This document shows, piece by piece, positions 9,144-63,019 of a stretch of 64,000 nucleotides of DNA (positions within the stretch are counted from its first letter, which is position 1; each line of letters starts with the position of its first letter). The stretch lies in assembly GCA_019248485.1 (NCBI GenBank), contig JAEHGL010000001.1, positions 11,446 to 75,445 on the forward strand, read 5' to 3'. The notes below the pieces were generated by a model. The model was not told the origin of the DNA and ran no database searches. It saw nothing but the letters and a program-made list of their open reading frames with translations. Made by a program: the position numbers and the translations under genes. Source of the stretch: Candidatus Komeilibacteria bacterium S5_K13. Lineage in GTDB: Bacteria > Patescibacteriota > Patescibacteriia > UBA1558 > S5-K13.

Positions 9144-9698
9144 TTAGACCGTCATTATCTCTTTTTCTTTTTTATCTGTCATTTCTTCTATGATCTGATT
9201 CTTCTCTTTTGTCATATCATCAATTTTTTTAAATAAGTCAAATTTGTCATCTTCTCCGATTTCTTTATTTAGTTCTCTTTGCTCTGTATCTTTTCTTGCC
9301 TTATCTCTAATTTGTCTTATAGAAACACGCGAATCTTCTCTTTTGTCATGTAAAATTTTTACAAGCGCCTTTCTTTTGTCCTCTGTAGGAGCTTGAACCT
9401 GCACTCTTACAACATTATCTGAAACAGAAATACTCATATCTAAATTAGCCTTAGAAAGCCCTCTTTCAATGTCTTTTAGAATTGATTTGTCCCATGGCTC
9501 TACTACAAGCATTGTTGGCTCTGGCACTGAAATAGATGCAAGTTGTTTAATTGGAGTCTTTGTTCCATATGACTCTACTAAAACATCTTCAATCATTGCG
9601 GGAATTGCTTTTCCAGCCCTAATTTTGTCTATTTCTTCTTTGTAATGATCTATAGCCTTATCATATTCTTGTTTAAAAACGTCTATCATTTGTGACAT
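9144..9698 (-). CDS. frr: Ribosome recycling factor, with an acidic C-terminal extension.
   Basis: IDVFKQEYDKAIDHYKEEIDKIRAGKA...IERGLSKANL is the Frr signature. Confidence 0.85.
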   Translation of the reverse strand: MSQMIDVFKQEYDKAIDHYKEEIDKIRAGKAIPAMIEDVLVESYGTKTPIKQLASISVPEPTMLVVEPWDKSILKDIERGLSKANLDMSISVSDNVVRVQVQAPTEDKRKALVKILHDKREDSRVSIRQIRDKARKDTEQRELNKEIGEDDKFDLFKKIDDMTKEKNQIIEEMTDKKEKEIMTV

Positions 9699-10850: not shown

Positions 10851-11861
10851 TTATATTATTAAAATATTTTCCAAAATAATCCTAGGATTTACATTTTGAA
10901 AAATCATTTTTTTAGCACTTAAAATATTTTTATAAAAATTAATAAGCTCTTCATAACTAAACTTTCTTGAAACTTTTGAAATAGACCCCTTTAGAAACTC
11001 GTGTATTAATTCAATTTCTGGATCTAGTTTAAAAACAATTAAATCCCTTGCAATTTTTAGATAATTATCTAACAAATTTTCAAAATATACATATTGATTG
11101 TCTTTGCTGCCGTTTTTTTTGATAATACTTTCAACCCAAAAAAATTTTTCATTAAGCGAGTTATCCATTATTTCAAGCATTTGGGAAAGATTAGTTTTTT
11201 GAATATTCCAACCTTCTTGATCTTTAAAATAATGAAGCGCTATCCCTGGGGATCCTCCTGCAAATTTGGATAGTTCTTTGGAAATATCGCCACCCGCACC
11301 AAGAGATTTCAAATTTTCATAAATTTCATCATCCGATACATTATTGAAAATAATATTTTGACTGCGCGATCTAATAGTTGGCAAAATATTTTCTATTTTC
11401 TCAGCTATTAAAATTATCATAGAGCTCTTACTTGGTTCTTCAATTGTTTTTAGTAGCGCATTGGCAGATTCTTTATTTAATGAGTCGGCATTGTTGATGA
11501 GTCCGATTTTGTATTTTGATCTCATTGGTGTTCTAGACATTCTATTTTGAAAATCTCTTACTTGTTCTATTGAAATATTTTTCTTTCCCTCTTCTCTATC
11601 GACATATATATAATCTGGATGAGAAAGCTTTGATATTTCAATACAATCATTACAATGATTACATGGAATAGAATTTCTGTCCGAACAAAAAATAGATTTC
11701 ACAAAAAGATCGGCCATTGTCTTCTTGCCAATATCACGAGGTCCGGTAAATAAATATGTATGTAAAAAGTCTTGTTTTTCTATGAGCCTTTCCAGATATT
11801 TGACTATGTTTTGATGTCCTAAAATAGGCCAATTCATATTTTGACTAATATCATTTTCCAT
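10851..11861 (-). CDS. holB: DNA polymerase III delta-prime subunit-like AAA+ protein (HolB; a short DnaX is the alternative).
   Basis: GPRDIGKKT P-loop-like segment, a Cys4 zinc module (CNHCNDC) and an SRS/sensor region. Confidence 0.55.
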   Translation of the reverse strand: MENDISQNMNWPILGHQNIVKYLERLIEKQDFLHTYLFTGPRDIGKKTMADLFVKSIFCSDRNSIPCNHCNDCIEISKLSHPDYIYVDREEGKKNISIEQVRDFQNRMSRTPMRSKYKIGLINNADSLNKESANALLKTIEEPSKSSMIILIAEKIENILPTIRSRSQNIIFNNVSDDEIYENLKSLGAGGDISKELSKFAGGSPGIALHYFKDQEGWNIQKTNLSQMLEIMDNSLNEKFFWVESIIKKNGSKDNQYVYFENLLDNYLKIARDLIVFKLDPEIELIHEFLKGSISKVSRKFSYEELINFYKNILSAKKMIFQNVNPRIILENILII

Positions 11862-11899
11862 ATTTTTAAGAATAGCAAATTTTCGACTAAATTACTACC

Positions 11900-13380
11900 C
11901 TGACATCACCTCAGAGGTGCATCACCTCAGAGGTGTTTAGCTGTGGATAACTACTATTGACAATAACTCTATGACATGCTATGTTACTTTATTGTACATT
12001 AACAATTCACTTCAAATTAACAGCAAGAAAAATGTAGAAGACTCTTTAAGAGGAGCTAATCTTTGGCGCCTTGAAAATAAACAAATTGCCATTTTAGCCA
12101 CTCTTCTACAGCTTTCTTGCTGTTAAAAAGGCTCCCTCTGTCAGAGATATTAGTTGACTAAGGAGCCATGATAAAGATGCCGCTTCCCTTAATTCTTTAT
12201 CCGAAATCAACAGAATTCAATTATTAAATAGGTGTTGATTGGTAGATAGAGGATGTTTCCCAACAATGGAGGTAACATGAGTATTCGGGGACAGCCCTAG
12301 ATTCCAAAATAAAAACAATCCCCCGAGACTTGGGGGAAATTCCGAATAGAAAAATTTTTTTGACAAAAGACATCCCTTGCTCCATTCTCCCCTAAAAGCA
12401 CATTACTACACATTAGAGGGATTTTACGGAAGCATGGGTAATATCTTTTGTCACCCGTCTTGTGGTCTTCGCGTCTGTTCAATGCTCTCGAGTTTTTAGC
12501 AAAGATCATTAGACACCCCTGGTGCCCCCATACGCACAGTAAGCGCACTCCCAACAATTGTTGGGAGTGAAAAAAGCGCTACGATATGTGCTGCTGGTTC
12601 TTTGAACCTGCCCTATAGCACTCAGAAATAGCGATGGGGGCTCACCAGAAAAACACCAAAGGCAACCTAGCAATTTTCCGGCTAATCCATGGTAACTCCG
12701 TTTTTTTTAGCGGTAATATCCATAGACAAAACCGGCCTAGGATGCCCGAGTGTGCGGACCAAAAGACTGTTAAGGGTTTACCTAAGGGCGCCCTTTCGCA
12801 CCTAGCTTGGTGCGAGCACAGTTTTGGCCACACGCGGCGACCCATGTCCCTGGCGCCTTCGCTCAATTGCTCATCGGGCTAAAACCTCCGATAAGAGCTA
12901 GAGAATCGTATTGCGAAGGCGCCTAATTCAATCAGTTCACATTGGTCCTTTATTGGATCAAACGGACCAAGGCCTAAAAAGCCCCGGCCTGTGCCAGCAG
13001 AAAGCTGACCAAGGCTCTCAAGTCCGAACCCAATGTGAACTCAAACCCCATTCTCTTTGGGGCTTGAATCGATAAGCGTAAAACAAATTACGCAAGTTGT
13101 TTACAAGCCCCCTTGAGATTTCAAGAAACAACCCCCGCAGTCTAATTGACTAGAGGGGTTAATGAAAGAAACATAAGTTTCTGAGAACCTCACGCCGAGG
13201 AATAATGCCTCTAGATAGAGTGTTCTCAGGGAAGACCGTCCAGAAGTCCTTCTGGACTCTAAACGACAACAAGCTTGACTGTAACCGAAAGGTACAGCCC
13301 GCCACGTCGTTAGACTCCTTAGGACTTCTGGAAAATTTTAACTAAGACCCGTAATACACTGTGGTCTTTTTTATTTGTCA
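11900..13380. ncRNA. Large GC-rich (~50% GC), hairpin-dense noncoding locus. Candidate structured RNA(s) of unknown family; strand unresolved.
   Basis: No credible ORF (the three track ORFs overlap each other on both strands). There are many perfect hairpins, for example CACTCCCAACAATTGTTGGGAGTG, GGCGCCTTCGC...GCGAAGGCGCC, and a long-range pair GTTCACATTGG/CCAATGTGAAC. A + strand promoter-like site sits at about 11957-11985 and a terminator at 13345-13377. Confidence 0.4.
13345..13377 (+). terminator. Hairpin AGACC-N13-GGTCT followed by a T-run.
   Basis: Stem-loop plus TTTTTTATTT at the 3' edge of the GC-rich locus. Confidence 0.45.
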
Positions 13381-13424
13381 GAAACCGACCCTGAGGGTCG
13401 ACCTAAAAATCTGCTCTTGACGAT

Positions 13425-13455
13425 TATATTTATATGTGATAAAATGCTACATTAA
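13425..13455 (+). promoter_or_regulatory. Sigma70-like promoter (TTGACG -17- TAAAAT) upstream of the beta-barrel gene.
   Basis: TTGACGATTATATTTATATGTGATAAAATG, followed by a strong SD AGGGAGG 6 nt before the ATG at 13481. Confidence 0.5.
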
Positions 13456-13480
13456 ATAAAATCAATAAAGGGAGGATATC

Positions 13481-14452
13481 ATGAAAAAAATGATATTTAT
13501 CATCATGTCAGTCTGCCTATTCGCAGGTTTAGTGGCACAAACAACACCCACCACCTCACCCACATTTTATGGGAAACTAATGATGGGAACATGGTACAAT
13601 ACTGGAAATAGTACTTTTTCTGAGCAGATGTATTCCAACTCTCGTCTTGGTATCAGATGGAATAATGGACATTCTTATGACTTCATAGGGGAGATGGGAA
13701 TGAGTCCCAACGGTATTGTGTTAAGAAAACTGACATGCGTCATGAATATCTGGAATGGTTGCGATCTCAAAATTGGGAATGATTGGTTTAGTGGACTTGA
13801 TCAATGCACTAATGGAGCAACTGGCCCCACTTATACATCTGATAGCCCTACAGAATCTGGTCCTGCAGTAATTGCCAGAACACCACAGATAACATTGATA
13901 CACAATGATTTGTATCTTAGTTTTCTACCGGGTATAACGGTTAATCCAACCGGAACAGAGACAACAAAAAGCATTCCCAGACTGGCTGTCTCAAAAAAGG
14001 TTAAAATCTTAGACGTAAATTTTACTCCTGCATTATCCTATGGACATTACTGGGATAAACAAAATTCTTATAATGCCTGGGTGGTCTGTATCACAGCTAA
14101 AAGTAAAATTTTTGATTACGACATTACTACACAAGGATTTATAGCCAATAATTTTGGCGATTTGGGTGGATTAAGTATTGCTCAATCTAACGCAACTGCT
14201 ATTAATCAAAATATTCAATCAGGTGGTGCTTTTGCACAAATTAGATATCAAAACTTTTATGTAGGTGCTGGATATACCAAAAATAAAACAATGGAAACAG
14301 ACGCCGGTACCACGTTTTTCCAATATAACAAAACCATGTGGAAAAATGGAAACATTACATTAACACTAACTCCTGAAATGGGATTGTTCTTTGGAGATAA
14401 TGTCTCCAAAAACACTTTATATTTCGGAAGTAAGTGGACAGCCCAATTCTAA
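13481..14452 (+). CDS. Secreted protein resembling an outer-membrane beta-barrel/porin (C-terminal Phe, alternating hydrophobic strands). GC content is higher than its neighbours.
   Basis: Signal peptide MKKMIFIIMSVCLFAGLVAQ. C-terminus ...YFGSKWTAQF. Strong SD. ~40% GC. Confidence 0.5.
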   Translation: MKKMIFIIMSVCLFAGLVAQTTPTTSPTFYGKLMMGTWYNTGNSTFSEQMYSNSRLGIRWNNGHSYDFIGEMGMSPNGIVLRKLTCVMNIWNGCDLKIGNDWFSGLDQCTNGATGPTYTSDSPTESGPAVIARTPQITLIHNDLYLSFLPGITVNPTGTETTKSIPRLAVSKKVKILDVNFTPALSYGHYWDKQNSYNAWVVCITAKSKIFDYDITTQGFIANNFGDLGGLSIAQSNATAINQNIQSGGAFAQIRYQNFYVGAGYTKNKTMETDAGTTFFQYNKTMWKNGNITLTLTPEMGLFFGDNVSKNTLYFGSKWTAQF

Positions 14453-14475
14453 TCAAGCTGTTAATAAAACATAAA

Positions 14476-14500
14476 ACGGGCTCCATGAGTCCGTTTTTTT
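14476..14500. terminator. Bidirectional intrinsic terminator between the 13481 gene (+) and rnhA (-).
   Basis: AACGGGCTCCATGAGTCCGTTTTTTT, with an A-run on the other side. Confidence 0.55.
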
Positions 14501-28850: not shown

Positions 28851-28958
28851 TAAGTTATCCACAATTAACACTTGACATAATATTATATATATACTATTAT
28901 AATATATTCTCAATAGAGAATTTAGTAAATAAAATAATATTCTTTTCTGGAGGAAGAA

Positions 28959-29483
28959 ATGAAAACATTAGTTTTTATCATTGTCATTACCATTATTATG
29001 TTATCCACCGGCTGCAGTGAAAGAGAAGTCTTTTTCAACCTTTTTGGCTATATCGATGATTCATTCAATTGCTCAGGTATATTTATTAGTGCCTCAAAAG
29101 GATACTATGAAGCTTTTGGAGAAAATCCGACTTATGGTTGGGTCATAAATCATGCAGAACATGACTCATTAATCATAAAAACAGAATCATATCTATCTTT
29201 TGCTCGCAGATACAAAGAGGATTCATCAAAAGTATATTACCTTATTGTTAAAAGGGGCAAAGAAAAATGGAACGTACCAATAAATCCTGAGACAAGTCAG
29301 GTATTAGACCTAAATGCTTTTATAACAAAGAATTCAGATGTTGGGGTTACAAAACTACGTAATAGAATTAGATTTTACCTTGACAATAAGTCAAACATCC
29401 AATACATTTTGGACACAATAAATAAGTGTCCAGAAATAAAACAGACAAATATGGCAATCCCATGGAAACCTGGATTGCATTAA
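28959..29483 (+). CDS. Lipoprotein, hypothetical (174 aa).
   Basis: Signal peptide plus lipobox LSTGC. Strong SD GGAGGA. Own terminator. Confidence 0.55.
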   Translation: MKTLVFIIVITIIMLSTGCSEREVFFNLFGYIDDSFNCSGIFISASKGYYEAFGENPTYGWVINHAEHDSLIIKTESYLSFARRYKEDSSKVYYLIVKRGKEKWNVPINPETSQVLDLNAFITKNSDVGVTKLRNRIRFYLDNKSNIQYILDTINKCPEIKQTNMAIPWKPGLH

Positions 29484-62945: not shown

Positions 62946-63019
62946 TGGAGGTCACGATCGGAATCGAACCGACGATGAGAGTTTTGCAGACTCCTGCCTT
63001 ACCACTTGGCTACGTGACC
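62946..63019 (-). tRNA. tRNA-Cys (anticodon GCA). CCA is encoded and the discriminator is U73.
   Basis: Manual fold. Acceptor stem GGTCACG/CGTGACC (7 bp), U8A9, D-loop with GG, anticodon stem GGAGT/ACTCT, loop CTGCAAA, T-arm GTCGG-TTCGATT-CCGAT, and 3' TCCA. Confidence 0.8.

Follow-up and report, generated by a model that had tools for sequence, protein, structure and literature searches.

Positions 11957-13377 of a 64,000-nt stretch of contig JAEHGL010000001.1 (the window) can be read with moderate confidence as a separate + strand gene whose product is an RNA of about 1.35 kb, highly structured and for the most part non-coding; sequence comparison suggests that it belongs to a family not described before. 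It is about as credible that the family occurs only in one clade of uncultivated bacteria with small genomes, whose nearest named relatives are Patescibacteria (candidate phyla radiation, CPR), and that it always lies there between rnhA and holB. The transcript is probably a dual-function RNA. Lineages exchange the modules of its body, and strains that are otherwise near-identical can carry entirely different ones.

The original prediction, made from the letters of the window, had described a GC-rich, hairpin-dense gap at this place and had offered a large structured non-coding RNA of no known family as one of three readings. The GC contrast and the stems were confirmed, and the fold, the + strand signals and the lack of an Rfam match speak for that reading. 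GC content is 0.45-0.51 over 12350-13250 (300-nt windows), compared with about 0.30-0.33 in the adjacent upstream windows (11300-12049) and 0.21-0.41 in the wider flanks. No other long gene-free island of high GC content occurs in the 64 kb.

Related loci are referred to below by L numbers. L003 was found by a genome scan with holB and has an 87% identical holB and the same intergenic region; L004 is a partial locus with a 60% identical holB. L016, a 1337-nt JGI contig, was found with a 23-nt pattern from H1, the long hairpin near the 5' end. The same pattern gave no match in viral contigs, and six 24-nt patterns from translated invariant RNA blocks found nothing in viral contigs or JGI metagenomes. 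The contigs of holB homologues supplied L018, L020/L021, L022/L023, L024/L025/L026 and L027. The search for homologous loci that had been proposed as a check thus yielded a syntenic family: six or more additional lineages have the locus, without exception between rnhA and holB. Among named organisms, Patescibacteria/Parcubacteria have the closest holB proteins (33-37% identity), and gene content and a GC content of 31% fit a CPR-like small genome.

Promoter, terminator and 5' hairpin

The predicted promoter matches the consensus at 10 of 12 hexamer positions, has TG upstream of the -10 element and places the transcription start near 11992 (Table 1). TTGACA and TGnTATnnT are kept in all 10 recovered loci. 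Only positions 4 and 5 of the -10 element vary, as expected of a working one. The spacer is 17 nt long in the group of the window and 16 nt in a second group of loci. The terminator stem and U-run are retained in L003 and L016 with a different loop; the consensus scanner missed this terminator because its loop is 12 nt. Both signals had been proposed originally at these positions, and conservation supports them. Conservation against L003 sets in abruptly at the box and promoter (11942-11985) and ends at the terminator hairpin, while the spacers immediately outside the unit are 57-77% identical. The locus therefore has its own predicted promoter and terminator, as a stand-alone non-coding RNA gene should.

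The DnaA-box-like 9-mer upstream of the promoter is invariant in the window, L003, L004, L016, L002 and L006. In L018, L020, L022, L024 and L027 it is inverted (TTATCCACA) at the equivalent place, 8 nt from TTGACA. By the E. coli consensus it would be a putative DnaA-binding site. The small inverted repeat at the predicted 5' end is nearly invariant across the window, L003, L004 and L016 and may act as an operator or form a 5' stem.

H1 is a genuine RNA element. Its minimum free energy (MFE) is -43 kcal/mol (z = -7.3), and its 25-nt arms (12017-12041/12102-12126) are 92% complementary. Across the window, L003, L004 and L016 four pairs covary and none is non-canonical, pairs being lost only at the contig end of L004. 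The G-U pairs are readable only on the + strand. A core, AUGyAGAAGA/UCUUC..UACA, is common to the group of the window and the second group.

Table 1. Positions of the locus and its predicted elements in the window (SD, Shine-Dalgarno sequence; ORF, open reading frame)
Feature	Position	Strand	Details
Gap holding the locus			1619 nt; between holB (10851-11861, -) and a 323-aa ORF (13481-14452, +)
DnaA-box-like 9-mer	11942-11950	+	TGTGGATAA; 6 nt upstream of the -35 hexamer
Sigma-70-type promoter	11957-11985	+	-35 TTGACA at 11957-11962; 17-nt spacer; extended -10 TGCTATGTT at 11977-11985
Small inverted repeat	11991-12006	+	ATTGTACATTAACAAT; at predicted 5' end; predicted small hairpin
H1	12017-12126	+	110-nt hairpin; near-perfect basal duplex of 23-25 bp
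SD-sequestering hairpin	12130-12167	+	GGCUCC...GGAGCC; sequesters the SD of mini-ORF 1; z = -3.0
Mini-ORF 1	12168-12227	+	MIKMPLPLILYPKSTEFNY, then stop
Mini-ORF 2	12277-12300	+	MSIRGQP, then stop; SD GGAGG at 12268-12272
GC-rich body	12350-13340	+	chain of about ten largely independent hairpin domains
Body domain stems	12361-12453; 12519-12648; 12682-12739; 12754-12845; 12852-12923	+	12519-12648 encloses the perfect hairpin 12546-12569
Further body domain stems	12934-13041; 13052-13118; 13138-13168; 13181-13229; 13239-13332	+	
Stem GCCCCCAT/ATGGGGGC	12524-12531/12634-12641		
Stem	12546-12557/12558-12569		12 nt; 100% complementary
Stem	12852-12862/12913-12923		11 nt; 100% complementary
Stem	12934-12945/13030-13041		12 nt; 100% complementary
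Island CTTGAGAwwTCAAGrAACAACCC	13111-13134	+	only body segment alignable to the divergent L016
Stem CTGAGAAC/GTTCTCAG	13181-13188/13222-13229		
Intrinsic terminator	13345-13377	+	stem AAGACC/GGUCUU; 12-nt loop; then UUUUUUAUUU

Other sequence elements were noted around the box. Between the holB start and the box lie two exact tandem 16-mers, CATCACCTCAGAGGTG (11904-11935), each with the palindrome CACCTCAGAGGTG. L006 has a similar tandem pair, and L020 a different tandem palindrome pair, AACCTGCGAGGTTG twice, at the equivalent place. These look like operators of a divergent control region for holB and the RNA. A second promoter of the same architecture is found at 28854-28900 (GTTATCCACA, 8 nt, TTGACA, 17 nt, TACTATTAT), upstream of a lipoprotein-like ORF of 174 aa (28959-29483), and the 9-mer box therefore probably marks a small regulon. 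The DnaA box together with rnhA and holB also suggested an origin of replication (oriC) or an R-loop primer; both were rejected, since there is no GC-skew switch across the locus, the box is single and the RNA strand is C-rich, not G-rich.

Fold and selection in the GC-rich body

MFE z-scores relative to dinucleotide shuffles lie between -2.9 and -7.4 in nearly all 200-nt windows over 12000-13400, three weaker windows (12100-12399, 12600-12799) giving -1.2 to -1.9. In flanking coding DNA they range from about -1.6 to +2.6, with the exception of an isolated hairpin at 14300-14499. The stems quoted in the original prediction could be located in the sequence and are 92-100% complementary where measured, and the folding goes beyond shuffle expectation. 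A GC-rich hairpin chain of 0.8-1.3 kb and a terminator are shared across the family, and z-scores in six relatives run from -1 to -8.

Over 1367 aligned nt the window is 86% identical to L003, compared with 63% at the four-fold degenerate sites of holB, recJ and rnhA (n = 276). This difference indicates purifying selection and rules out the decaying foreign fragment that had been considered as an alternative. No protein or DNA similar to the locus was found in the phage, plasmid and viral collections searched, and conservation is not of the coding type. Purifying selection without a coding signal, as looked for in a non-coding RNA gene, is thus present.

The pattern of change follows the + strand fold. 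On the MFE structure of this strand, the L003 substitutions break 44 pairs, compared with 64 +/- 4.6 under a substitution-shuffle null (P < 0.0005), and paired sites carry 0.107 substitutions per site versus 0.150 for unpaired sites. On the - strand the two rates are equal and the pair-preservation effect is weak. Length differences between the window and L003 are located in loops, an example being a 13-nt insertion in the hairpin loop 13076-13093.

Conservation of the body does not extend across the whole family. In L016 the box, promoter and H1 are 81% identical to the window, and an L003-like terminator is followed by rnhA. The body of about 840 nt between them is unalignable to the window except for one 24-nt island (87.5% identity to L016 506-529, E = 0.005 in a small search space). 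Loci of the second group consist of rnhA, a gene-free island of 1.3-1.5 kb (45-60% GC) and holB. They possess a long H1-type hairpin with an invariant base and negative folding z-scores. Conserved in this group are the first 300 nt at the 5' end and a 3' domain, in which three sequences show ten compensatory pairs. Between them lies a mosaic of 50-150-nt modules whose order differs between genomes. L024 and L025 have an identical holB protein and flanks that are 98-99% identical on both sides, yet their middles of 676 and 491 nt cannot be aligned. A module with the stem GUUCACA/UGUGAA seems to be common to the second group and the window domain 12934-13041. Neither the remainder of the window nor 326 kb of related DNA (loci masked; a fraction of each genome) contained further copies of a module.

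Several points weigh against a single large structured RNA gene. Within the body of the window, only L003 could be aligned. Relative to it, single-sided stem substitutions retain pairing in about 35% of cases, near the neutral expectation. Compensatory doubles number 6 versus 3.1 expected (P = 0.09), and wobble-creating changes in strict Watson-Crick helices are 12 versus 12 between the strands and so do not separate them. For the body, then, the sequence evidence of constraint is good and that for a specific fold is modest. Covariation, proposed as a check in the original prediction, is accordingly seen in H1 and in the 3' domain of the second group, while the signal in the body of the window is modest and comes from L003. 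A loop k-mer census of eight members gave no recurrent motif, only generic A-rich loops, and no partner protein was identified. The terminator hairpin is weak in isolation (-7.4 kcal/mol, z = -1.0). The transcript, its ends and any processing are predictions. The locus is absent in the distant relatives L011, where 38 nt separate rnhA from holB, and L007, which has a 182-aa membrane ORF in its place, and it appears disrupted or replaced in L002, L006, L017 and L019; it is therefore dispensable. L016, finally, lacks any mini-ORF preceded by a Shine-Dalgarno sequence (SD-ATG), so the peptides cannot be the universal function.

Further changes were observed at the edges of the locus. In L002 (1-105), L017 (1-28) and L019 (1-30) the box is followed by TTTAGGCACATACATTTGTCGGTTT (CTCTAATTG...) in place of the RNA promoter, and the contig ends soon after. 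This sequence is identical between lineages whose holB is 88% and 56% identical to that of the window, and no copy occurs in the window or in viral contigs. L017 and L018 have an identical holB protein, yet differ after the box. TTTAGGCACATACATTTGTCGGTTT may stem from a rearrangement, or it may be one end of a mobile element that has gone in precisely between the box and the -35 hexamer. Six independent contigs (L002, L004, L006, L008, L017 and L019) break within about 110-220 nt of holB on its upstream side, either within the RNA locus or at its edge, which would agree with a repeat or with strain-level heterogeneity at this place. A second small transcription unit is present between the RNA terminator and rnhA in L020 (about 1160-1370 of the gap, in the orientation of the RNA), L024 and L025. 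It consists of a promoter (TTGACAAAAT...TAATAT/TAACAT), a structured stretch of about 150-190 nt and a strong terminator, and had no Rfam match.

The 323-aa ORF downstream of the locus has a signal-peptide-like N-terminus, an outer-membrane beta-barrel-like C-terminus (...WTAQF) and its own promoter (13417-13445). It is missing in L003, where rnhA directly follows the RNA. Among 5.8 billion proteins it had no homologue except itself, which makes it unusable for synteny. The isolated hairpin at 14300-14499 (z = -5.3 on the + strand and -4.1 on the - strand) lies between the ends of this ORF and rnhA and is probably a bidirectional terminator. L007 (2898-3281) and L011 (7348-7731) carry a 127-aa 23S_rRNA_IVP/bAvd-like gene upstream of recJ that the window does not have at that place.

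Mini-ORFs, alternative explanations and a possible role

Two SD-preceded mini-ORFs had been proposed at the 5' edge of the locus, and both are present, at corrected coordinates. In L003, mini-ORF 1 has GTG for its ATG start and TGA for its TAA stop, and its sole indel, of 6 nt, is in frame. The hairpin that sequesters its SD shows one compensatory change in L003, from G-C to A-U. The spacing between SD and start is 2 nt and the 3' half lies inside the covarying stem 12192-12254, which makes translation of mini-ORF 1 uncertain. Mini-ORF 2 reads MNIRGQP-stop in L003, two of the three changed codons being synonymous. An L003 insertion of 110 nt (about 9480-9610, - strand; aligned between window positions 12275 and 12276) carries a second GGAGGTATCATGA SD-ATG module (GGAGGTATCATGAATGCACGAGGAAGACCC...) and looks like a module duplication within the RNA.

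Canonical SD-N4-ATG modules are also found in L018, L020, L022, L024, L025 and L027, and six of eight members contain more GGAG-N4-10-ATG modules than shuffled sequences do. Five lineages of the second group have a short ORF that ends in Ser-Gly-Phe-X-stop, and the Ser-Gly-Phe codons of L018, L020 and L022 differ at third positions only. An ORF of 32-37 aa in L018, L024 and L025 keeps its frame through 3-nt indels, with mostly synonymous changes in its N-terminal part, and a start-Asp-stop ORF retains its start as ATG or TTG. Taken as patterns of sequence change, these findings argue that at least some of the mini-ORFs are translated. The peptides are different and non-homologous between the group of the window and the second group. 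With this, with the awkward placement of mini-ORF 1 and with their absence from L016, the mini-ORFs are better regarded as accessory elements than as the common function.

The same observations support the strongest rival, namely that the transcript serves chiefly as the message for a micro-protein or leader peptide, or for several, and that the GC-rich kilobase is a structured 3' untranslated region with a stabilising or secondary role. The enrichment of SD-N4-ATG modules, starts and stops that swap and yet persist, third-position variation and in-frame indels are all what such an mRNA would show. We nevertheless hold it to be unlikely. L016 keeps the promoter, H1, body and terminator with no SD-ATG ORF, the peptides are not homologous between the two groups, and mini-ORF 1 starts 2 nt after its SD and runs into a covarying stem. 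About 1 kb of the transcript (12350-13340), moreover, is strongly folded and 86% conserved although no SD-preceded ORF is conserved in it.

A real small RNA gene might instead comprise only the promoter and H1, the body being functionless GC-rich hairpin DNA of foreign or selfish origin that has accumulated before the terminator. The body is indeed unalignable between lineages whose promoter and H1 are 81% identical, and it is replaced between near-identical strains. The rnhA-holB gap is moreover a variable hotspot (the orphan ORF in the window, the 182-aa membrane ORF in L007, the second unit in L020, L024 and L025), and contigs often break at the locus. This explanation is nonetheless quite improbable, as the body is far more conserved relative to L003 than neutral sites are, with paired sites more conserved still, and the 3' domain of the second group covaries. 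Nor were module copies found in the window or the 326 kb of related DNA, relatives in phages, plasmids or viral contigs, or protein remnants.

A known RNA in strongly diverged or fragmented form (RNase P, tmRNA, SRP RNA, a group I or II intron, an rRNA fragment, OLE, GOLLD or ROOL), or several of them in tandem, is essentially excluded. Known RNAs of these kinds typically stand out by high GC in AT-rich genomes, and the original prediction had pointed to resemblances seen by eye. The Rfam covariance-model scan that it proposed was run. At Rfam 15 gathering thresholds the only match in the whole window is a tRNA (62949-63019), and no family was found in the locus, L003, L018, L020 or L022. At E <= 10 (11700-13600, L016 and L020) only unrelated low scores appeared, for example the trpB motif, plant miRNAs and a CRISPR repeat. 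RNase P models gave no match in these three sequences even at that threshold, and the supposed CR-II/III and P4 elements of RNase P are backed by no model score. ARAGORN found no tRNA or tmRNA in 11500-13800, and tmRNA had no Rfam match either. The SRP RNA and 6S RNA models did not match, H1 scoring with neither. Group I and group II intron models had no match at E <= 10, and the neighbourhood contains no reverse transcriptase or maturase. These results give no support to the housekeeping RNAs in tandem or the ORF-less intron that had been suggested. Housekeeping RNAs, furthermore, are not replaced between strains of 98-99% identity. Models of OLE, GOLLD, ROOL, HEARO and raiA had no match in the locus or the relatives scanned, and the repeated binding motif in loops expected of a CsrB/RsmZ-like sponge was absent from the eight members of the census.

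Two kinds of DNA element were also considered and rejected. The attC sites of integrons have the core consensus RYYYAAC...GTTRRRY and usually lie near intI. On direct reading the stems of the locus do not fit such core sites, and its neighbours are holB, rnhA and recJ, with no integrase. A dispersed repeat, MITE or IS remnant was rejected for want of a second copy in the window or the 326 kb of related DNA, which covers part of each genome.

A decayed protein-coding gene, or a gene in another genetic code, can likewise be regarded as essentially excluded: a - strand frame has few stops (15 in 1460 nt) and L016 has a - strand ORF of 188 codons, but the low stop count follows from the base skew of the + strand (A>T, C>G). 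TAA, TAG and TGA are numerous in all six frames, and with all three kinds in every frame no single stop reassignment opens one. Pfam gave no match for nine ORF translations of the locus. The longest pseudo-frame is 74% identical to L003 in amino acids compared with 86% in DNA, the pattern expected of non-coding DNA, which places the constraint elsewhere than on a protein. The statement that the locus holds no credible ORF thus stands. An 86-aa ORF had no homologue among 5.8 billion proteins. A 74-aa ORF had one match among 1.84 billion representatives (E = 7e-4), which was rejected as chance, since the matched 144-aa protein is internally repetitive and has no called neighbouring domains.

For the structured RNA gene that we favour, a working scheme can be proposed. 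The box would couple transcription to DnaA or a similar factor, as is suggested by its retention even when inverted and its recurrence at the promoter at 28854-28900. The H1 duplex of 20-25 bp may be a processing or protein-binding handle of the kind cut by RNase III. The body, a stable chain of hairpins whose stems are GC-rich and whose loops are A-rich, might bind protein in trans, as a scaffold or a decoy, and its partner could be under diversifying pressure; such pressure would explain the turnover of modules. The SD-preceded mini-ORFs at the 5' end would be translated in most members, and ribosome loading or stalling there may protect or gate the downstream RNA. Loading or stalling is suggested by the endings of these ORFs (Pro-stop in the window, Ser-Gly-Phe-X-stop elsewhere). 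Pro-stop is a poor termination context in E. coli, and only from such E. coli contexts do we infer stalling at the mini-ORFs.

A bolder reading, which we put forward as a long shot, is a variable-cargo system at the RNA level. In it, the conserved module of box, promoter and H1 would drive a structured payload exchanged between strains like cassettes. The payload would comprise decoys, antitoxins or guides against phages or competing cells of these episymbiotic small-genome bacteria, and stalling mini-ORFs would couple its activity to the translation state. Such a system, if real, would represent a new type of hypervariable RNA locus other than CRISPR.

Comparison with known systems

Large structured bacterial RNAs of unknown function are rare, and each new class (OLE, GOLLD, ROOL, raiA) has led to new biology. 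The candidate described here is longer than these four and comes from a poorly understood, uncultivated lineage with reduced genomes. It shows an unusual combination of a deeply conserved promoter and 5' hairpin, a strongly folded body that is under selection between close species and yet replaced as a whole between strains, and tiny ORFs with coding-type conservation. If confirmed, it would provide a searchable locus (rnhA-holB, with an invariant promoter and H1 signature) for studying the evolution and function of modular RNAs in CPR-like bacteria.

Leader peptides such as TnaC (Pro-stop), Erm and Cat share with the locus very short SD-preceded ORFs with a conserved end next to the stop (here RGQP-stop and SGF-X-stop), and one SD of the locus is likewise sequestered in a covarying hairpin. 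In contrast to these elements, the locus has no downstream protein gene to regulate, its terminator facing rnhA or, in the window, the orphan ORF. Dual-function RNAs (RNAIII/hld, SgrS/SgrT, SR1/SR1P) similarly combine a structured regulatory RNA with a small ORF near one end. They are 200-500 nt long, base-pair with known targets and are conserved along their length, unlike the locus. No antisense target and no second copy of the locus modules were found in the 64-kb window, and the peptides differ between subgroups.

Sponges of the CsrB/RsmZ type also have a strong promoter, a terminator, a chain of hairpins whose number and order change fast, and little conservation outside short elements. 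The locus differs from them in having no repeated loop motif such as GGA, in being 3-10 times longer and in its SD-ATG mini-ORFs.

OLE, GOLLD and ROOL are likewise stand-alone genes of hundreds to >1000 nt with many hairpin domains, GC-rich stems and A-rich loops, a high GC content in an AT-rich genome and a narrow phylogenetic range. Their core fold is conserved across members, whereas here only the 5' hairpin and, within subgroups, the 3' domain are conserved and the middle is a mosaic. The locus, moreover, matches no Rfam model and contains embedded mini-ORFs. GOLLD and ROOL are usually associated with prophages or tRNAs, while the locus is chromosomal and syntenic between rnhA and holB. 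Overall, it resembles the large orphan structured RNAs and differs from them in its length, its mosaic, strain-variable body and its embedded mini-ORFs.

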